In this document: one piece after another, positions 3,032 to 12,680 of the stretch
Layout of the letters: each line of letters starts with the position of its first letter
Numbering within the stretch: the first letter of the stretch is position 1
UHGV virus genome: UHGV-0078853
Reading direction: 5' to 3' (one strand)
Length of the DNA stretch: 15,593 nucleotides
From: a virus
Position numbers and translations under genes: made by a program
The notes under the pieces: model-generated
What the model saw: the letters and a program-made list of their open reading frames with translations, nothing else
Database searches by the model: none
What the model was told of the DNA's origin: nothing

Positions 3032-3041
3032 ACTATAAGAA

Positions 3042-3057
3042 AGCCCCTTTCGGGGCT
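3042..3057 (-). promoter_or_regulatory. hairpin AGCCCC-GAAA-GGGGCU between portal and head morphogenesis genes (terminator-like or stabiliser)
   Basis: Same core stem-loop sequence as the terminator at 1472-1489; on the minus strand it is followed by UUUCUUAUAG. Confidence 0.4.
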
Positions 3058-6365: not shown

Positions 6366-6430
6366 AGAATCCCCTTGCATATGCGTCTGACCATCAGAGC
6401 GCATCAGACGCGCCCTACGCGTCTAAAGGG

Positions 6431-6460
6431 ATTATATAAGGTGATTGGGCAGGATGTACA
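6431..6460 (-). promoter_or_regulatory. putative promoter for the terminase operon (TGTACA-N18-TATAAT, minus strand)
   Basis: Perfect -10 TATAAT at 6436-6431 on the minus strand; weak -35 TGTACA at 6460-6455. Confidence 0.4.
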
Positions 6461-6483
6461 GAAAAGCCCTCGGTAGAGGGCTT
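6461..6483 (-). terminator. intrinsic terminator-like hairpin after the micro-gene array
   Basis: AAGCCCTC-ggta-GAGGGCTT 8-bp stem; on the minus strand it is followed by UUUUCUGU. Confidence 0.45.
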
Positions 6484-6486
6484 GTA

Positions 6487-6588
6487 TCAGTTGTATAGGC
6501 CGTGGCGTGGTGCTCTTTTACCGTCGCCACCGTAATGGTCGTTAGCTACGGGAATGGCCCGGGCGTTAGGGATGATTAGTAGTCTCAT
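6487..6588 (-). CDS. hypothetical micro-protein (33 aa)
   Basis: ATG 6588 overlaps the upstream stop as ATGA; translation MRLLIIPNARAIPVANDHYGGDGKRAPRHGLYN; no independent support. Confidence 0.25.
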   Translation of the reverse strand: MRLLIIPNARAIPVANDHYGGDGKRAPRHGLYN

Positions 6589-6743
6589 TTGAAGAAACCA
6601 TCCTTGACAAGCTGACGGTATAGTTTAGCTGCGTAACGCTCTGCCTGGCCTTTGCGCCGAAATATTTTCCCATTAACTGAATACTTATTTAACTCTGGCT
6701 CGTACCAAACTTGGTTGTCGATGAACTCCAGAATACTAATCAT
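6585..6743 (-). CDS. hypothetical small protein (52 aa)
   Basis: ATG 6743 overlaps the upstream stop (ATGA) with a GAGGGGAG Shine-Dalgarno-like run upstream; below the ORF-track size cut-off. Confidence 0.4.
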   Translation of the reverse strand: MISILEFIDNQVWYEPELNKYSVNGKIFRRKGQAERYAAKLYRQLVKDGFFK

Positions 6744-6976
6744 TCCCCACTCCCCTCTTTAGCAATACGTTGCTCTGTTTTAGTAATACCCCGGCGCGTG
6801 AATAACACCGGGCTTGTCTTAACGTGCGTCATCAGACGATTGTTATAAATTACATGGCGTTCACAATCGACGTCTTTGCTGTACTTCGCAATCGTCATTT
6901 CGTTGATGCCGGTTTGTCGGCATGTCTCCGCCATCGTGCCAAATTCTTTAATCAGGTTCGGAATGCTGGTAATCAT
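6740..6976 (-). CDS. hypothetical protein (78 aa)
   Basis: Track ORF 6740-7000; the start is more likely ATG 6976, which overlaps the upstream stop as ATGA. Confidence 0.5.
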   Translation of the reverse strand: MITSIPNLIKEFGTMAETCRQTGINEMTIAKYSKDVDCERHVIYNNRLMTHVKTSPVLFTRRGITKTEQRIAKEGSGE

Positions 6977-7143
6977 CCTAAAAAATTCCTCGTTGTCCAC
7001 ATCGCATTCGGATATTTATTATCACGGTCCTGTACCACAGCAATCATGTTTCCGCGTTGCACCAGGCAGAAGTGCCGTTGTTGTTCACCGTTGTAGCGAC
7101 GCCAGATTGCTTCTTCGATTGCCGCGTTAATGTCACTGAACAT
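6973..7143 (-). CDS. hypothetical small protein (56 aa)
   Basis: ATG 7143 lies 2 nt after the upstream stop, with a GGGG run upstream; translation MFSDINAAIEEAIWRRYNGEQQRHF... Read by hand. Confidence 0.4.
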   Translation of the reverse strand: MFSDINAAIEEAIWRRYNGEQQRHFCLVQRGNMIAVVQDRDNKYPNAMWTTRNFLG

Positions 7144-7145
7144 AC

Positions 7146-7328
7146 TTACCCCACTATCTCATCGCCAAGCCACGCCGTTTCTCGTATATCGTCGACCACA
7201 CAGGCGGCGTGCTCCCGGCTAATTGCAAAAATGTAGAAGCTAAACTTCTTCCCGTCGGCGTCGATATGGTTAACCGAGTAGGGTTTCCACAGGACGCCAT
7301 CGATAACTACGGGTTCAGGCGCTTTCAT
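7146..7328 (-). CDS. hypothetical protein (60 aa)
   Basis: ORF-track entry; ATG 7328 overlaps the end of the upstream gene. Confidence 0.5.
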   Translation of the reverse strand: MKAPEPVVIDGVLWKPYSVNHIDADGKKFSFYIFAISREHAACVVDDIRETAWLGDEIVG

Positions 7329-7563
7329 ACGCTTTACCGCATTTTAAGCATGTGGCTCGATGCACCCCATCAACTAAATGCAGGCGGTAATCATGCTCGC
7401 AGGCGTTCATCTTTTCCTCTTCTCCTCTCAACAACATGAGAAGAACCTTAAATGCGGCTAACTGGTACTCACCGTTAATTGACAGTTGCCCGCCTAACGT
7501 CTGTTTCTCCGACTCAAGCACCAGAATACGGCGCTCGAGCGATGCGATTGTGATTTTAGGCAT
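7315..7563 (-). CDS. hypothetical protein with C-terminal Cys/His cluster (82 aa)
   Basis: Start ATG 7563 with AAAGGTGA Shine-Dalgarno; C-terminus CEHDYRLHLVDGVHRATCLKCGK suggests a small zinc ribbon. Confidence 0.5.
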   Translation of the reverse strand: MPKITIASLERRILVLESEKQTLGGQLSINGEYQLAAFKVLLMLLRGEEEKMNACEHDYRLHLVDGVHRATCLKCGKAYESA

Positions 7564-7741
7564 TGGTGTCACCTTTGTTCAGGTTGAAGCGGTTAATCAG
7601 TTCACGGCGTGTCTCGTATAGCGACTCAACCATTTGCTCGGCTACCGCGATTTTAGTATTCAGGACGTACATCACGTGCCCGATGTCTACGCAGCCGTCA
7701 ACGGCCTCTACCATCATCTTTTCATATTCGCGGTCAGTCAT
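7556..7741 (-). CDS. hypothetical protein (61 aa)
   Basis: Start ATG 7741 overlaps the upstream stop inside the repeated GGAGAGAAGAAATGA junction. Confidence 0.5.
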   Translation of the reverse strand: MTDREYEKMMVEAVDGCVDIGHVMYVLNTKIAVAEQMVESLYETRRELINRFNLNKGDTNA

Positions 7742-7752
7742 TTCTTCTCTCC
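7738..7752 (-). repeat. 15-bp junction repeat (minus strand GGAGAGAAGAAATGA), copy 1
   Basis: Exact 15-mer also present at 7890-7904; each spans a Shine-Dalgarno, the last codons GEKK, and an overlapping stop/start. Confidence 0.85.
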
Positions 7753-7893
7753 CCACATGCGATTGAGATACTTGTTCTTGTCCGGCCCAGGGAAACTGTT
7801 ACGTTTCATCAGTTCCTCGCGTGTCGGGAACGGAGTGTGACTTACTTTACGACCTACGCGTAACGGTTGGCTTATCTGACCTTGTTCGCTCAT
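7738..7893 (-). CDS. hypothetical small protein (51 aa)
   Basis: Hand-translated MSEQGQISQPLRVGRK...NRMWGEKK; start and stop both sit in copies of the GGAGAGAAGAAATGA junction. Confidence 0.4.
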   Translation of the reverse strand: MSEQGQISQPLRVGRKVSHTPFPTREELMKRNSFPGPDKNKYLNRMWGEKK

Positions 7894-7904
7894 TTCTTCT
7901 CTCC
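7890..7904 (-). repeat. 15-bp junction repeat (minus strand GGAGAGAAGAAATGA), copy 2
   Basis: Exact match to 7738-7752. Confidence 0.85.
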
Positions 7905-8039
7905 TGCATAAGCTGCTTTCAGTGTCTGCATCGCGGCGAACCAGAACGCGTCCGCAGGAATGCTGTTGCTCAGGTTACTAACGGCGATGCGTGCCATCAG
8001 TTGCGCATCTTTGAATGCTTCGGTATCTGTGATTTTCAT
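7890..8039 (-). CDS. hypothetical small protein (49 aa)
   Basis: ATG 8039 preceded by GGAGTGGAGAAG; first gene after the promoter at 8073-8101; ends in the GEKK/ATGA junction. Confidence 0.4.
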   Translation of the reverse strand: MKITDTEAFKDAQLMARIAVSNLSNSIPADAFWFAAMQTLKAAYAGEKK

Positions 8040-8072
8040 CTTCTCCACTCCGTTCTCGTTGTCGATGGAGTA

Positions 8073-8101
8073 AATATAGTAGGGTCTAGGGTAGTAGTCA
8101 A
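8073..8101 (-). promoter_or_regulatory. near-consensus sigma70-type promoter (TTGACT-N17-TATATT, minus strand)
   Basis: Minus-strand -35 TTGACT at 8101-8096 and -10 TATATT at 8078-8073 with a 17-nt spacer; about 35 nt upstream of the ATG at 8039. Confidence 0.6.
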
Positions 8102-8123
8102 CTAGTCATTGCGGAAGATAGAT

Positions 8124-8155
8124 AAAAAAAATCCCGGCTGGGTCAGGGCCGGGAT
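8124..8155 (-). terminator. strong rho-independent terminator ending the lysis operon
   Basis: 8-bp stem ATCCCGGC/GCCGGGAT with a 9-nt loop, followed on the minus strand by eight U residues (plus-strand A-run 8124-8131). Confidence 0.8.
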
Positions 8156-8219
8156 GAAACTGGAGAGCAGAGGGATGGAGCAGGAGGTGATTTAAGTATC
8201 GTCGGATTAGTCTTAGGTG

Positions 8220-8297
8220 TCAACCTTCGCCGTAACCGACCTGCTCGTCAATATCGTCACGAGATTTAACTGGGTTGGTGAACTCTTGCAGTGCCAT
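8220..8297 (-). CDS. possible 25-aa micro-ORF downstream of endolysin
   Basis: ATG 8297 with a GGAGG Shine-Dalgarno 5 nt upstream; translation MALQEFTNPVKSRDDIDEQVGYGEG; no other support. Confidence 0.25.
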   Translation of the reverse strand: MALQEFTNPVKSRDDIDEQVGYGEG

Positions 8298-8366
8298 AAC
8301 GGCCTCCATTGGCAAATACGAAAAACTTGGCCTAACCAGAATACTAAACGCCTTCGTATTCGTCCA

Positions 8367-9478: not shown

Positions 9479-9772
9479 TTATTTATGCCGCCGGATGTAT
9501 TGTCGTCTCTGTGGTTTCGTCGGAATATCATCGTATCCCTGCGATTTCCAGTAATTAAATAACCGATTAGCGATAGCGGCGCGTTCTTGTGTTTTGAACT
9601 CACCGAGATTAACAGCCTTCCCGTTCTGGAATCCACAGGCGCGGATAGCTTTGCGTCTGGTCTGAATCTCCGGGTACAGCGCATTACGGCGGCGCTTGTA
9701 TATCTGTGTTTTAGCTCTCGGCGACAGCGGCGCAAGGCCGCTTCGTTTCAGGATGTCAGTTGCCAGGCTCAT
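9479..9772 (-). CDS. small basic DNA-binding protein, possible AP2-like domain
   Basis: Segment RKAIRACGFQNGKAVNLGEFKTQERAAIANRLFNYW resembles the AP2/ERF-type core (LG-F-T-EE-AA-A) seen in phage AP2 proteins; ATG 9772 overlaps the upstream stop as ATGA. Confidence 0.4.
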   Translation of the reverse strand: MSLATDILKRSGLAPLSPRAKTQIYKRRRNALYPEIQTRRKAIRACGFQNGKAVNLGEFKTQERAAIANRLFNYWKSQGYDDIPTKPQRRQYIRRHK

Positions 9773-9948
9773 AGGTCCAGAATCTCGCGCGCCAATTCAT
9801 CCGTCTTCCAGTCGCACGGACTGTTTACTACCTGCTTAGCAAGCTCACGCAGTTTACGTTCAAGCTCCGCGTAGTCTTCGTATAGGACCCAGCGCCCTTC
9901 CGCGCCCTGAAACATATCGCCGTGGTCGTTTTCGTATCTCTGCACCAT
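9769..9948 (-). CDS. hypothetical small protein, tandem paralog 2 (59 aa)
   Basis: Start ATG 9948 with a GGAG-type Shine-Dalgarno. N-terminus MVQRYENDHGDMFQGAEGRWVLYEDYAELERKL parallels the upstream gene. Confidence 0.5.
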   Translation of the reverse strand: MVQRYENDHGDMFQGAEGRWVLYEDYAELERKLRELAKQVVNSPCDWKTDELAREILDL

Positions 9949-10130
9949 CACTCCACCCCTTCCACATGTGTAACTGACCCACAGTTCGCGCACTCGATGT
10001 AATCCGGGAACTGGTCTTTGTATTTCTGTAACTCAGCTTCGAGTTTCGCGTAATCTTCGTAAAGCACTAACACGCCCTCAACATCAGGAGTAAACCCGAA
10101 TATCTGGTCGTAGGTATATCTCTGTACCAT
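9948..10130 (-). CDS. hypothetical small protein, tandem paralog 1 (60 aa)
   Basis: Start ATG 10130 with an AGGAGA Shine-Dalgarno 7 nt upstream. N-terminus MVQRYTYDQIFGFTPDVEGVLVLYEDYAKLEAEL; C-terminus has a CANCG motif. Confidence 0.5.
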   Translation of the reverse strand: MVQRYTYDQIFGFTPDVEGVLVLYEDYAKLEAELQKYKDQFPDYIECANCGSVTHVEGVE

Positions 10131-10132
10131 AA

Positions 10133-10336
10133 TCACTTCTCCTGATTGCCAAGTCGCTTAGGTGAGCAGATAGCGCGTACCTCCGAATCGTTGGGTTTGT
10201 CACCCTGAAACAGAAAGTGCGCGTTCTCTGCGGCGCGTGCCGCTGACTGGCACGCCTCCATCGAATAAAACGTTTCCGATGCCGCTAGTTGCATCTGGCC
10301 CGCCGACAGTACCCAGATAAATAAGATGCTGGTCAT
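10133..10336 (-). CDS. small membrane or secreted peptide (67 aa)
   Basis: ATG 10336 overlaps the upstream stop (TGATG). Hydrophobic N-terminus MTSILFIWVLSAGQMQLAAS followed by a short soluble region with two Cys. Confidence 0.4.
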   Translation of the reverse strand: MTSILFIWVLSAGQMQLAASETFYSMEACQSAARAAENAHFLFQGDKPNDSEVRAICSPKRLGNQEK

Positions 10337-10881
10337 CAGAAGTATTCCCCGCACGTTTTACATACTTTCGTACCGAACGGCGCGGAGCCACCTGTTATTA
10401 CATAATAGAAACTGTGTTTGCACTCCTGTGTACAGGCTGTTGCCCCATACTCAAGTCCGTCCCACTCACGCTTGCCGCATTCGCAGCAAAACCGGCTACC
10501 GGGCACGTTGTCCTTGTGGCCTTCGGCAATAAACAATCCTGGAGTGATAATCCAATTGTGGTCACATTCCTGCGTATCTTCTTTTCGGCAACCAGATTGC
10601 TCCGAACCGTACGCACCTTTGCGGATAAGTTTGTATGCCTCCACGTCACCAGTAGCCTCGACCAATGCCAGATGCAACTCCTTAACTTGCCCTGTCAGGT
10701 GCGATATGTGCTCAGATTTCTTAATGTTGTCTTCCCGCAACTCCTTAATCTGCGCCGACGCATCACGTAACTGATTCTTAAGTGACTGCACCTCATGCGC
10801 CAGGTCTTCGCTCCGGCTGTTATTTACCTGCTGCCGTAGCTGGTAGATCAGGTACTCGAATATTTCGTTTTTGTTACTCAT
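10336..10881 (-). CDS. coiled-coil protein with C-terminal Cys/His-rich (zinc-binding-like) domain (181 aa)
   Basis: Start ATG 10881 (MSNKNEIF...) with an AAGGGG Shine-Dalgarno. N-terminal half is heptad-like and charged; C-terminal half has CDHNW, CCECG, CTQECKH and CKTCG clusters. Confidence 0.6.
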   Translation of the reverse strand: MSNKNEIFEYLIYQLRQQVNNSRSEDLAHEVQSLKNQLRDASAQIKELREDNIKKSEHISHLTGQVKELHLALVEATGDVEAYKLIRKGAYGSEQSGCRKEDTQECDHNWIITPGLFIAEGHKDNVPGSRFCCECGKREWDGLEYGATACTQECKHSFYYVITGGSAPFGTKVCKTCGEYF

Positions 10882-11011
10882 CAGCTTCACCCCTTTTCTC
10901 ATCCACCCCGACTAGCAGCGATTTAGTGTCGCCGTCACACACCGAAGTGCTACTAATTATTTCGTAAGCGTCTACCAGTTCGCCTAAAGTCCAGCTACCG
11001 TACCGGCCCAT
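10874..11011 (-). CDS. hypothetical micro-protein (45 aa)
   Basis: ATG 11011 preceded by an AGGAG Shine-Dalgarno; its stop overlaps the start of the downstream gene; hand-translated. Confidence 0.3.
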   Translation of the reverse strand: MGRYGSWTLGELVDAYEIISSTSVCDGDTKSLLVGVDEKRGEADE

Positions 11012-11041
11012 CTCTGTCTCTCCTCTCGCTTGTGTAAATGA

Positions 11042-11070
11042 ATAGTAGCCTATTCTATCTTAGTGTGCAA
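11042..11070 (-). promoter_or_regulatory. internal promoter, TTGCAC-N17-TACTAT family (minus strand)
   Basis: Minus-strand -35 TTGCAC at 11070-11065 and -10 TACTAT at 11047-11042; same hexamers, spacing and flanking AATAGGnTACTATTCA as the promoter at 12335-12363. Confidence 0.45.
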
Positions 11071-11076
11071 GTAAAT

Positions 11077-11250
11077 TTATTGGTGTGTTATGGAGTCGAT
11101 GAATGCCAGTAACTCCCTTTCCGCTTCTGCCTCTCTTTCTTCAAGCGACCAGGTAGCGGATTCCTCTGTCGCCGTTGCTAAATCGGTTTTCGCATCAACC
11201 ATCGTGTCGATTAACGTGATTAGTCGTTCAGCCTGTTCTTTAGTAATCAT
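11077..11250 (-). CDS. hypothetical small acidic protein (57 aa)
   Basis: ATG 11250 with an AGGAGA Shine-Dalgarno 7 nt upstream; below the track size cut-off. Confidence 0.4.
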   Translation of the reverse strand: MITKEQAERLITLIDTMVDAKTDLATATEESATWSLEEREAEAERELLAFIDSITHQ

Positions 11251-11384
11251 TGTTGCATCTCCTGCAATAGTCGCTTCGATTGTTGCGTTTGATGAAAGTG
11301 TCGCCTTTTGACGACACTAAGTTAAAGTTGTACGCTGCTGTGTGGCAGCGTAAGTCACTCAGTAAAATCCCAAACTATTGAACA

Positions 11385-11585
11385 TCACACTTCTGGCGGC
11401 TCGGGTAACGGCATCCAGTGCGTCACGTACTTATCGTAGTGATTCCAGAAAGGCTTTCTCCCGTCATCAGGAACTATGTAATAATCGTGCTGAACTGCGT
11501 TATTTAACGTTTCATACACCAGGAACTCTTTATCCGTATACCCATTACCCGGCAGCATCTCACTACACTTAATCCACTCACCCAT
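11385..11585 (-). CDS. DUF551-like phage protein (66 aa)
   Basis: N-terminal WIKCSEMLPG and C-terminal VTHWMPLPEPP match the DUF551 pattern common in phage early regions; ATG 11585 with an AGAGGTG Shine-Dalgarno. Confidence 0.65.
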   Translation of the reverse strand: MGEWIKCSEMLPGNGYTDKEFLVYETLNNAVQHDYYIVPDDGRKPFWNHYDKYVTHWMPLPEPPEV

Positions 11586-11733
11586 ACCTCACACCTCTTT
11601 CAATCAAGGATTGCACACCAGCTTTCCACGCCCGCCACGCGAGACGCGTCTTAACGTTCAGGTACTCTTTCTTTGAACCCTTGTTAACCGGCAGACCCTC
11701 GACCACAGCCCACCGTTCAAATGCTTCTCTCAT
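11578..11733 (-). CDS. hypothetical small protein (51 aa)
   Basis: ATG 11733 overlaps the upstream stop (ATGA); translation MREAFERWAVVEGLPVNKGSKKEYLNVKTRLAWRAWKAG...; stop overlaps the next start. Confidence 0.4.
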   Translation of the reverse strand: MREAFERWAVVEGLPVNKGSKKEYLNVKTRLAWRAWKAGVQSLIERGVRYG

Positions 11734-11908
11734 ACCAGAACCTCACATTCATCCAGATACACGAACAATAACGACCCTTTGTACTCAATCATAAAACCAT
11801 AATGGTTGATGCTGAACGCCGGAAAAACATCACCTACCGAGATACCGAAATCTATAAGCCTGCGGTCAGTTATACGGACAAGCCTGCGGTCAGTTATACG
11901 GATTCGCA
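11730..11908 (-). CDS. hypothetical protein with internal 8-aa tandem duplication (59 aa)
   Basis: Likely start ATG 11908 (GGGAGG upstream); N-terminus MRIRITDRRLVRITDRRLIDFG encoded by a 24-bp tandem repeat. Confidence 0.5.
11857..11904. repeat. 24-bp tandem direct repeat, 2 copies (22/24 identical)
   Basis: agcctgcggtcagttatacggaca followed immediately by agcctgcggtcagttatacggatt; in-frame within the CDS 11730-11908. Confidence 0.9.
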
Positions 11909-12109
11909 TTAACGGCAACCTCCCTCAGAGTCGTCGGCACAAGCATCACGATTCGATGCCGTTTTGATTGCCTGTAAGCTATTTAGCATTTGCTGGCTAT
12001 CCATCGTAATAATTGTAATCCCGTCTGATAAATGCACCTCGTAGCGTTCAGCTACGAAATATATTTCCTCGAAATCATGATGTTTCAGTTCTTCAAATAA
12101 TTCTTCCAT
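11909..12109 (-). CDS. hypothetical acidic protein (66 aa)
   Basis: ATG 12109 with an AAGGGG Shine-Dalgarno; overlaps the upstream stop (TGATG). Confidence 0.5.
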   Translation of the reverse strand: MEELFEELKHHDFEEIYFVAERYEVHLSDGITIITMDSQQMLNSLQAIKTASNRDACADDSEGGCR

Positions 12110-12300
12110 CACTTCGCCCCTTTAAATTTAAAATTGTTGCCGATGAGTTTTAAGTTCTCCTCTTCTACGTATATTTGTGAATTTACCCCTCTCACCTTTT
12201 GCACGGTCACTACGTACTCACCGGGAAATAAATTAGATTTTAATTCAATTATGCCGTGTTCACCGTCGGCGCATTTAACCAACTGACCATTCTTAAACAT
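12109..12300 (-). CDS. hypothetical protein (63 aa), first gene of the leftward early operon
   Basis: ATG 12300 (or GTG 12309) with a GGAG Shine-Dalgarno; translation MFKNGQLVKCADGEHGIIELKSN... Confidence 0.5.
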   Translation of the reverse strand: MFKNGQLVKCADGEHGIIELKSNLFPGEYVVTVQKVRGVNSQIYVEEENLKLIGNNFKFKGAK

Positions 12301-12334
12301 AACCCTCACTCCTCTGTCTCGTTCCGATAAGTGA

Positions 12335-12363
12335 ATAGTATCCTATTATGTTGGGGCGTGCAA
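12335..12363 (-). promoter_or_regulatory. promoter proximal to the early-left operon, TTGCAC-N17-TACTAT (minus strand)
   Basis: Minus-strand -35 TTGCAC at 12363-12358 and -10 TACTAT at 12340-12335; dyad AATAG-N4-CTATT overlaps the -10. Confidence 0.5.
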
Positions 12364-12422
12364 GAGATTAGTTACGTTGCCGTTGTGATTCTTTCGTTTC
12401 TTAAAGGAGTACGCAACGCAGT

Positions 12423-12442
12423 GGGTGGGCGTTAGCCCACCC
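12423..12442. promoter_or_regulatory. stable GC hairpin GGGTGGGC-gtta-GCCCACCC in the early-left leader
   Basis: 8-bp perfect stem with no adjacent U-tract on either strand; lies between element B and the proximal promoter. Confidence 0.45.
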
Positions 12443-12483
12443 CAGCGGAGTGAAGTACTCTCTACCTCACTCACTCACGGCAA

Positions 12484-12680
12484 CTATAGAAACTTTTAAT
12501 TATCAGTGACTTGGGTATTTAGGCGGGATTAACAATAGACTTTGGCCCTTCCGAAAGCGCCAGCGGAACTACACTCAAGTGCCTAATGGCACGCGTTGCG
12601 TTCCCTGCCGCTCCGCGGTCGCTTGCGATATCTCACAAGCTCAGTGAAGCTTAGCATATTTTTAAGTAAAAGTCAATACT
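12484..12680 (-). repeat. copy B of the conserved promoter-leader element
   Basis: See 1216-1408; same blocks in the same order and orientation. Confidence 0.8.
12648..12676 (-). promoter_or_regulatory. putative promoter inside element B (TTGACT-N17-TAAGCT, minus strand)
   Basis: Minus-strand -35 at 12676-12671 and -10 at 12653-12648; identical architecture to the copy-A promoter. Confidence 0.4.

Follow-up and report, generated by a model that had tools for sequence, protein, structure and literature searches.

A nine-gene accessory operon of a virulent Kagunavirus in which a repeated 15-nucleotide gene junction probably serves as coupling signal and recombination joint

The UHGV virus genome UHGV-0078853 was analysed as a stretch of 15,593 nucleotides (hereafter the window), in which nine small open reading frames (ORFs) on the minus strand, here called g1 to g9, tile positions 6487–8039. 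Our analysis suggests that this region is probably a self-contained accessory operon, situated in a hyperplastic, gene-swapping region of a virulent Kagunavirus, and that a 15-mer found at two of its gene junctions, GGAGAGAAGAAATGA, is both a signal for translational coupling and a joint for recombination. A first-pass annotation had described nine ORFs of 33–82 amino acids (aa) at these positions, and all nine are present, including the five below 60 aa (49, 51, 56, 52 and 33 aa). The same annotation had reported an identical 15-mer in two copies, each encoding ...GEKK-stop, and the two copies indeed lie at the g1/g2 and g2/g3 junctions. The genes and the two junction copies are listed here.

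g1, 7890–8039, minus strand: 49 aa, first gene, phrog_2180 (PHROG E = 5.5e-27), C terminus ...AYAGEKK-stop
g2, 7738–7893, minus strand: 51 aa, DUF2737 family
g3, 7556–7741, minus strand: 61 aa, phrog_1402 (PHROG E = 3.5e-21)
g4, 7315–7563, minus strand: 82 aa, helical N-terminal part and C-terminal Cys/His motif (CEH...CLKCG)
g5, 7146–7328, minus strand: 60 aa, lineage-restricted ORFan
g6, 6973–7143, minus strand: 56 aa, lineage-restricted ORFan
g7, 6740–6976, minus strand: 78 aa, NinH-like (Fis-like helix-turn-helix)
g8, 6585–6743, minus strand: 52 aa, phrog_22059 (E = 7e-42) and phrog_20882 (E = 5e-8)
g9, 6487–6588, minus strand: 33 aa, last gene, phrog_32259 (E = 3e-14)
Junction copy 1, 7890–7904, minus strand: GGAGAGAAGAAATGA, comprising the Shine-Dalgarno (SD) sequence, the g1 stop and the g2 start
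Junction copy 2, 7738–7752, minus strand: GGAGAGAAGAAATGA, comprising the SD sequence, the g2 stop and the g3 start

Within the window, GGAGAGAAGAAATGA occurs at these two sites only, even when two mismatches are allowed, and shuffled sequences average 0.05 matches. For comparison with relatives, 51 related loci were collected via the small terminase gene (terS), and 38 cassettes extending from the lysin gene to terS were extracted from them. In 33 of the 38 cassettes, g1 or a fusion termed F16 is followed by an exact 15-mer, irrespective of which gene comes next (g2 or one of the families F11, F15, F27, F35, F44 and F48). The exact sequence forms the end of four unrelated families, g1, F27, F48 and g2, and joins 14 distinct gene pairs; the encoded tails read ...ELAGEKK in F27, ...KFAGEKK in F48 and ...MWGEKK in some g2 alleles. 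In g1, F27 and F48 the identity also takes in the preceding GCA codon and so reaches an 18-mer, GCAGGAGAGAAGAAATGA. Both F27 and F48 are inserted between g1 and g2 with direct repeats of the junction (18–24 nt) on either side, and in F48 the identity runs 5 nt further past the ATGA. These flanking repeats, together with the sharing of one end by four unrelated families, support the view that recombination has taken place at or through the junction.

Copy 2 represents a minority allele of g2. It is exact in 4 of 37 cassettes (two before g3, one before F41 and one before F51) and carries one mismatch in two more, and most g2 alleles end in GERKND-stop or GERKE-stop. Weaker sharing of tails is seen elsewhere in the cassette: g8 and the unrelated F9 both end in ...FFK-stop before g9, and F24, which is inserted after g7, has a g7-like tail. 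When distinct-family pairs were compared over the 14 nt before the next ATG, at least 11 matched in 12 of the 106 pairs that neighbour each other or share a downstream gene, versus 3 of the 390 others. As judged from these patterns, the 15-mer appears to be a translational-coupling signal that is also a short-homology recombination joint in this lineage.

The nine ORFs behave as genes. Purifying selection is seen in eight of them, with ratios of nonsynonymous to synonymous polymorphism (pN/pS) of 0.06–0.51 and variation concentrated at third codon positions. The ratio is 0.21 for g1 (32 alleles), 0.28 for g2, 0.38 for g3, 0.51 for g4, 0.09 for g5, 0.06 for g6 and 0.20 for g7; for g9, of 33 aa and 17 alleles, it is 0.11, and third codon positions account for 24 of the 43 variable columns. 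The selection test leaves out g8, because all the loci collected, including an extra hunt for more, yielded three alleles, which is too few; its PHROG matches and coupled ends argue that it, too, is a probable gene. Every one of the nine products matches PHROG families with no assigned function (E from 3e-14 to 6.5e-47), and in GenBank relatives the same chain is annotated as coding sequences, comprising hypothetical proteins, one 'DUF2737' and one 'NinH'. The nine genes are real, with mostly lineage-restricted products, yet already catalogued.

Stop and start codons overlap or abut throughout the nine-gene chain, with the same pattern across the 38 relatives, and from this anatomy the chain would be a translationally coupled operon. 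The first-pass annotation had described almost every junction as an ATGA or TGATG overlap with an SD sequence, which was correct in part. Five of the eight junctions (g1/g2, g2/g3, g6/g7, g7/g8 and g8/g9) are 4-nt ATGA overlaps and none is TGATG; the other three are an 8-nt overlap at g3/g4, a 14-nt overlap at g4/g5 and a 2-nt gap at g5/g6 (TAAGTATG). The SD sequences are uneven in strength, with a strong GGAG before g1, g2, g3 and g8 and weak ones before g5 and g9. Among the approximately 340 junctions of the 38 cassettes, the 4-nt ATGA overlap occurs 159 times, the 8-nt overlap 40 times and a 1-nt overlap 25 times.

Gene content varies widely, as the 38 cassettes hold about 55 small-protein families in 4–12 genes per cassette. 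Among related phages g1, g2, g3 and g7 are near-universal and the other genes are variable: g7 is found in 38 of 38 cassettes, g2 and g3 in 37 each, and g1 in 34, with the remaining 4 carrying it as the in-frame fusion F16; the counts for the others are 29 for g6, 28 for g5, 27 for g4, 21 for g9 and 7 for g8. The smallest cassette (L041) has g1, g2, g3 and g7 only, and we therefore take these four as the core. Together with the purifying selection and the stop/start overlaps, this variation supports the earlier suggestion of a coupled set of small accessory proteins.

Where relatives differ by indels, entire ORFs are gained or lost. Homology ends called by BLAST within the cassette lie at most 10 nt from a window gene junction in 78% of 310 cases, compared with 13% expected; these ends are non-independent events, and counted as distinct breakpoint coordinates 63 of 92 are near junctions, but the trend is very strong. 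In-frame chimeras also occur, namely F34N-g1 (F16, in loci L002, L031, L037 and L053), g4N-g5, g5N-g6, g1N-g6 and g3N-g6C, with P0014, P0040, P0043 and P0045 as chimera proteins and g5N-g6 found in Salmonella phage CTH7. The chimeras indicate that recombination happens inside genes too, that frame-keeping products survive and that intragenic deletions that keep the reading frame are tolerated. Distance correlations across junctions show that recombination is pervasive, also inside genes, so a gene once in place can spread by ordinary homologous recombination in conserved neighbours.

The transcription signals that bracket the array are given below.

8123–8155, minus strand: intrinsic terminator of the lysis operon, 8-bp G+C stem CCCGGC../..GCCGGG followed by U8
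8073–8101, minus strand: sigma-70-type promoter of the cassette, TTGACT-17 nt-TATATT, 10 of 12 consensus positions
6456–6483, minus strand: intrinsic terminator closing the cassette, AAGCCCTC-tacc-GAGGGCTT followed by UUUUCUGU, 8-bp stem
6431–6460, minus strand: promoter-like site for terS and the morphogenesis genes, TGTACA-18-TATAAT, 10 of 12 consensus positions

The promoter at 8073–8101 and the lysis terminator upstream of it had both been recognized in the first-pass annotation, and consensus score and predicted fold agree with that assignment. Both promoter hexamers are invariant in all 38 cassettes, with a variable spacer; the lysis terminator (fold −13.9 kcal/mol, z = −2.1) has a stem and T-run that are conserved in the 38 cassettes. 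The closing terminator folds at −14.4 kcal/mol (z = −3.4), and its stem shows a compensatory change, being GCCCTC/GAGGGC in the Kagunavirus-like and GCCCGC/GCGGGC in the Jerseyvirus-like clade. In the terS promoter-like site the −35 hexamer is invariant across the 38 loci and the −10 hexamer is TATAAT or TACAAT. Promoter-like matches inside the array are weak (9 of 12), and strong sites and terminators occur at its ends only. Its own promoter, the closing terminator and a separate promoter-like site for terS indicate that the cassette is probably its own transcription unit and not part of the packaging operon. The proposal that these genes are expressed with the packaging genes was not upheld as regards co-transcription, as a conserved terminator and a separate promoter-like site precede terS. 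During infection by the relative vB_Eco_K1B4, RNA sequencing detects transcription of the NinH homolog. In that coarse data set, with 57 genes annotated, the homolog belongs to 42 'middle' genes, a class that also holds lysozyme and structural genes, and lies outside the four early genes.

Further elements were observed near these signals. At about 6378–6424 (minus strand), in the stretch that leads from the promoter-like site to the coding region of terS, are two mutually exclusive hairpins, AGACGCG..CGCGTCT and GCGTCTGA..TCAGACGC, which have an arm in common and are conserved in the 38 loci; they could be a leader, an attenuator or a pac-related structure. A conserved promoter-like site, TTGACA-17-GATACT, at 8223–8195 on the minus strand, about 40 nt upstream of the lysis terminator, could yield a short transcript. 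A 29-aa ORF at 8220–8315 occurs in few relatives only.

The products were compared with families and structures. The g2 protein passes the Pfam threshold for DUF2737 (PF10930), with 38.9 bits against a cut-off of 25 (E = 8e-10, residues 20–46), and its residues 21–47 show 70% identity over 27 aa to hkaI of phage HK620, a gene of the early-left accessory region. HK620 hkaI likewise has a C terminus of ...GKK-stop and an ATGA overlap onto the next gene (its end reads GGGAAGAAATGA), so the AAGAAATGA tail is probably ancestral to the g2/hkaI family. One related phage carries a nonsense mutation at codon 3 of g2, which argues that g2 is dispensable. The g7 protein shares 33% identity and 55% positives over 51 aa with lambda NinH (pairwise E = 1e-9); it scores 23.4 bits (E = 5.5e-5) against Pfam NinH (PF06322), under the curated cut-off of 29.8, and homologs in several GenBank relatives are labelled NinH or NinH-like. 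Lambda NinH is a dimeric Fis-like protein that binds and bends DNA (PMC7166090), and g7 is a predicted NinH/Fis-like DNA-binding protein. The g4 protein is itself a two-module mosaic: it matches phrog_9023 over its full length, phrog_10200 over residues 1–51 and phrog_4188 over residues 51–78, and an internal breakpoint at about codon 32 recurs in 11 loci.

The most constrained members of the cassette, g5 and g6, are nonetheless lineage-restricted, with only 33 and 12 clusters, respectively, among 5.8 billion proteins. The confidently predicted g5 model (predicted local distance difference test score, pLDDT, of 83) has three strands followed by a helix and a strand, a small beta3-alpha-beta arrangement. 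It gave zero significant fold matches in the PDB (best E of 0.78, template modelling score at most 0.49), and among predicted viral structures the only entry with E ≤ 0.001 was an unnamed one of 100% identity, the next (E of 0.004, 32% identity) being unnamed as well, so that both are uninformative. A weak likeness of g5 to small phage inhibitors (p56, Dmd and an RNA polymerase inhibitor) was not taken as evidence. The g6 model is unreliable (pLDDT of 60). Searches of NCBIfam with the nine proteins returned zero matches, and PDB sequence searches with g4, g5, g6 and g7 returned nothing significant. By Pfam, PHROG and NCBIfam none of the products resembles a structural or packaging protein, as had been noted at first pass. 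We infer that the nine-protein set consists of dispensable modulators of host or phage DNA transactions or of host physiology, and not of parts of the virion or of the packaging apparatus.

The following scheme would account for these observations. The host-type sigma-70 promoter (8101–8073) probably drives a single polycistronic mRNA of about 1.6 kb, which would end at the intrinsic terminator at 6483–6456. The nine ORFs would be translated serially, via termination–reinitiation at overlapping stop/start codons, mostly AUGA, and reinitiation would be aided by an SD sequence within the 3′-terminal part of each preceding gene. The core would consist of g1, g2, g3 and g7, with g4, g5, g6, g8 and g9 as optional members. 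In this scheme GGAGAGAAGAAATGA would primarily be a strong coupling signal, made up of GGAG, a 7-nt purine spacer and AUGA; because it is short, identical and in register, it would also have served as a joint for short-homology recombination. F27 and F48 would have entered behind g1, leaving a copy of the 18-mer on either side of each insert, and part of the g2 population would have acquired or kept the same 15-mer tail. New genes would enter rarely, by microhomology or illegitimate events, with only those joints surviving that preserve stop/start coupling, and they would then spread by ordinary homologous recombination in conserved flanks.

Three other explanations were weighed against this account. 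It is highly improbable that some or all of the ORFs below 60 aa are not genes and that the region is mostly a non-coding leader. Purifying selection contradicts this for eight ORFs, PHROG matches go down to E = 6.5e-47, the ORFs tile the region without gaps and the indels of relatives add or remove whole ORFs; small ORFs are, however, frequent by chance, g8 has too few alleles for the selection test and the SD sequence is weak in several ORFs. The cassette might instead be part of the packaging module, in which case it would be co-transcribed with terS and terL by read-through, g7 would bend DNA near the pac site and thereby aid the small terminase, and the other products would tune packaging. 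Consistent with such a role are the orientation shared with terS and the position immediately upstream of it, the presence of g7 in 38 of 38 cassettes together with DNA bending by NinH, the placing of the NinH homolog in the same broad temporal class as structural genes and the conserved alternative hairpins just before terS. We nevertheless regard it as unlikely, given the conserved terminator with its compensatory change and the separate promoter-like site between g9 and terS, the highly variable gene content apart from g1, g2, g3 and g7, and the lack of any member that is like a packaging protein.

A further explanation is convergence, in which selection for an optimal ribosome-binding site and stop/start design would independently have given the same 15–18 nt at several gene ends with no recombination. 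The 15-mer is a near-ideal coupling signal, and the lambdoid g2 homolog hkaI likewise has an end of this kind. When 2.9 million viral contigs were scanned for the 18-mer, it was found in 57 stretches, of which about 23 are in non-Kagunavirus contigs (40–62% G+C), and all of these are genuine ...AGEKK-stop/ATG junctions; collapsing relatives leaves about 12 independent contexts in unrelated phages. In a control scan of sixteen purine spacer variants in the same collection, the real sequence had 60 matches and the commonest others 10, 9, 8 and 8, which indicates that such junctions arise independently. Strong SD–AUGA junctions of the 15/18-mer form thus appear to arise independently in unrelated phages. 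Within the lineage, however, the identity includes the GCA codon and, in F48, 5 nt past the ATGA (18–24 nt in all), the shared tail is specific to genes inserted directly after g1, and tail sharing is enriched in positionally linked pairs (12/106 versus 3/390). Moreover, the real variant is about 6 times commoner than any control variant, owing to this lineage. Convergence as the whole explanation is therefore, in our estimation, quite unlikely.

Several observations weigh against our preferred account of an accessory operon with a dual-purpose junction. Four of the six families inserted between g1 and g2 (F11, F15, F35 and F44) join g2 without the repeat; their 3′ ends are their own, the breakpoint falls precisely on the ATG and at most 4–8 nt are shared, so the repeat is not required for exchange. 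Loss of g2 by recombination between the two 15-mer copies, which would leave the joint ...GCTTATGCAGGAGAGAAGAAATGACTGACCGC, was seen in none of the sampled cassettes. The approximately 12 independent non-Kagunavirus contexts of the 18-mer are close to the control background, which suggests that re-use of the 15/18-mer is lineage-specific; the idea that the 18-mer is a universal mobile linker was dropped, because purine-variant controls reach 8–10 matches each. In Mantel correlations of distances, gene halves are as decoupled as neighbouring genes, g1 being an exception (r = 0.57 between its halves versus 0.17 for g1–g2); the method has no resolving power here, and since even halves of single genes are decoupled it does not single out junctions as crossover hotspots. 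Synonymous sites are variable at 10 of 20 positions in gene tails versus 166 of 310 in gene bodies (p = 0.47), so extra constraint on the tails was not detectable, in a comparison that had no power. The closing terminator may be leaky, with read-through into terS. Searches of Pfam, NCBIfam and PDB sequences and the g5 fold searches gave no function for seven of the nine proteins. Finally, Kagunaviruses are reported to be highly sensitive to restriction-modification systems, which makes an anti-restriction role unlikely.

The suggestion in the first-pass annotation that the repeated junction is a recombination linker therefore holds in part: the junction ends four unrelated families and flanks F27 and F48, but four inserts lack it and elsewhere it is near background. 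A stronger version, in which the SD–AUGA junction doubles as a selected, portable linker because the short-homology recombination machinery of phage or host prefers 15–18-nt in-register junctions, strikes us as doubtful. If true, it would allow whole ORFs to be inserted, deleted or swapped, with each recombinant automatically expressed via coupling, and would amount to a 'plug-and-play' gene-cassette system at the level of translation signals. A parallel example was observed in an unrelated phage group (G+C about 58%) that weakly resembles phages of Burkholderia and Pseudomonas. There a 33-nt junction, ATCGACGCCGCCATTGCAGGAGAGAAGAAATGA (IDAAIAGEKK-stop), joins different upstream and downstream genes, many of them with repeated ADGGKGEAV motifs, at L055:2614–2631 and L063:6525–6542 and in L076, L080, L088 and L104. 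This junction hints that a linker system is possibly general.

The region 6400–8200 is 94–96% identical to Escherichia phages UTI-CM001, fTaEco03, K1G and K1H. It matched 440 phage records, nearly all of them Kagunavirus or Jerseyvirus (Guernseyvirinae) siphophages of E. coli and Salmonella, and the source of the window is a virulent Kagunavirus siphophage. A search of the same region against 5,426 complete E. coli genomes gave zero matches, which is consistent with a virulent phage, and a prophage origin was rejected on this ground. The cassette lies between the lysis genes and terS, directly upstream of terS and in the same orientation. Downstream, Pfam identifies a Mu-F-like head protein, a portal protein and the large terminase, with terS placed from the annotation of relatives; upstream it identifies a phage lysozyme, with the holins there likewise taken from relatives.

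Other parts of the window also hold repeated elements or small genes. Upstream of the lysis genes, positions 9769–12474 on the minus strand hold another series of small ORFs, about 12 in number (42–188 aa) and mostly overlapping, which begins at a divergent region near 12.5 kb; the window thus contains two micro-gene arrays. A direct repeat of about 110 nt is present at 1262–1370 and 12533–12641, in both cases intergenic, with the copies 11.27 kb apart; they are 83% identical overall and 89% over a 45-nt core, and one lies just upstream of a plus-strand operon. The repeat had zero Rfam matches, and an Rfam scan of the whole window found no known RNA family. The 23-mer AAGCCTGCGGTCAGTTATACGGA is repeated exactly in tandem at 11856–11902, with one base between the copies, and the pair has an iteron- or operator-like look. 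An 18-nt hairpin, AAAGCCCCTTTCGGGGCT, occurs identically at 1471–1488 and 3040–3057, 3′ of two morphogenesis genes, and is likely a reused terminator.

The acquisition and loss of small accessory genes by phages has long been argued over, with short conserved linkers set against random illegitimate recombination followed by selection. The cassette shows both signatures at a single site, as two inserts have exact 18-mer flanks and four are joined only at the ATG, and it provides an unusually clean and data-rich natural example for this argument. Kagunaviruses such as CM001 are engineerable, so the linker question is directly testable at this locus. On the practical side, the cassette identifies a site within a therapeutic-phage chassis that is dispensable and supplies its own expression.

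For lambdoid phages, short conserved boundary sequences (linkers) where genes meet were reportedly described by Susskind and Botstein in 1978 and, for HK620, by Clark et al. in 2001. Like these, the cassette has a short identical sequence between unrelated genes of a mosaic accessory region. Its mosaic joints coincide with the 15-mer for F27 and F48 and not for F11, F15, F35 and F44. With HK620 it shares the homology of g2 to the accessory gene hkaI and a similar tail. Unlike the temperate lambdoid phages, the host phage here is a virulent Kagunavirus, and the shared element is the SD and stop/start coupling signal itself, which explains only some of the joints. The 'short conserved boundary sequences' of Susskind and Botstein and of Clark were invoked by Pope et al. 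for mycobacteriophage Island3 (PMC3029335), and the likeness to those of Clark et al. follows the description in that paper. Gene 68 of Island3 is an inserted small gene whose C-terminal end repeats the end of the upstream gene in both protein and DNA, which Pope et al. (2011) read as recombination at a short repeated boundary (PMC3029335). In the same way F27 and F48, inserted after g1, repeat the end of g1; the Island3 repeat, however, spans 18 codons in a single case, whereas that of the cassette spans 15–24 nt and involves several genes in dozens of genomes.

Promoter-stem-loop (PeSL) cassettes have been proposed as a recombination substrate that shuffles small ORFs in T4-type hyperplastic regions (PMC2839356, PMC4122927). 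What the two have in common is a series of small, functionally uncharacterized ORFs that differ from one close relative to the next and carry a repeated regulatory motif at their boundaries. A PeSL is a transcriptional unit of about 50 nt, consisting of an early promoter and a stem-loop between ORFs, whereas the cassette has one promoter and one terminator overall and its repeated motif is a translational signal inside coding sequence; an early promoter and stem-loop between individual ORFs is not what the cassette contains. In temperate phages, the lambdoid nin and ea regions consist of non-essential small genes that overlap one another in a chain, and their transcription starts from pR and pL and is subject to N antitermination. 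The cassette is likewise a chain of small overlapping genes and includes homologs of NinH (g7) and of hkaI/DUF2737 (g2). A typical moron is one gene, expressed from a prophage. The cassette is moron-like in having a conserved promoter (8101–8073) and terminator (6483–6456) of its own, which enclose it between conserved modules; unlike a moron, it is a nine-gene unit in a virulent phage, and its zero matches in the 5,426 E. coli genomes set it apart from prophage-expressed genes. Boundary sequences in hyperplastic accessory regions are already known, and the cassette is a good further example of them rather than a system of a new type.

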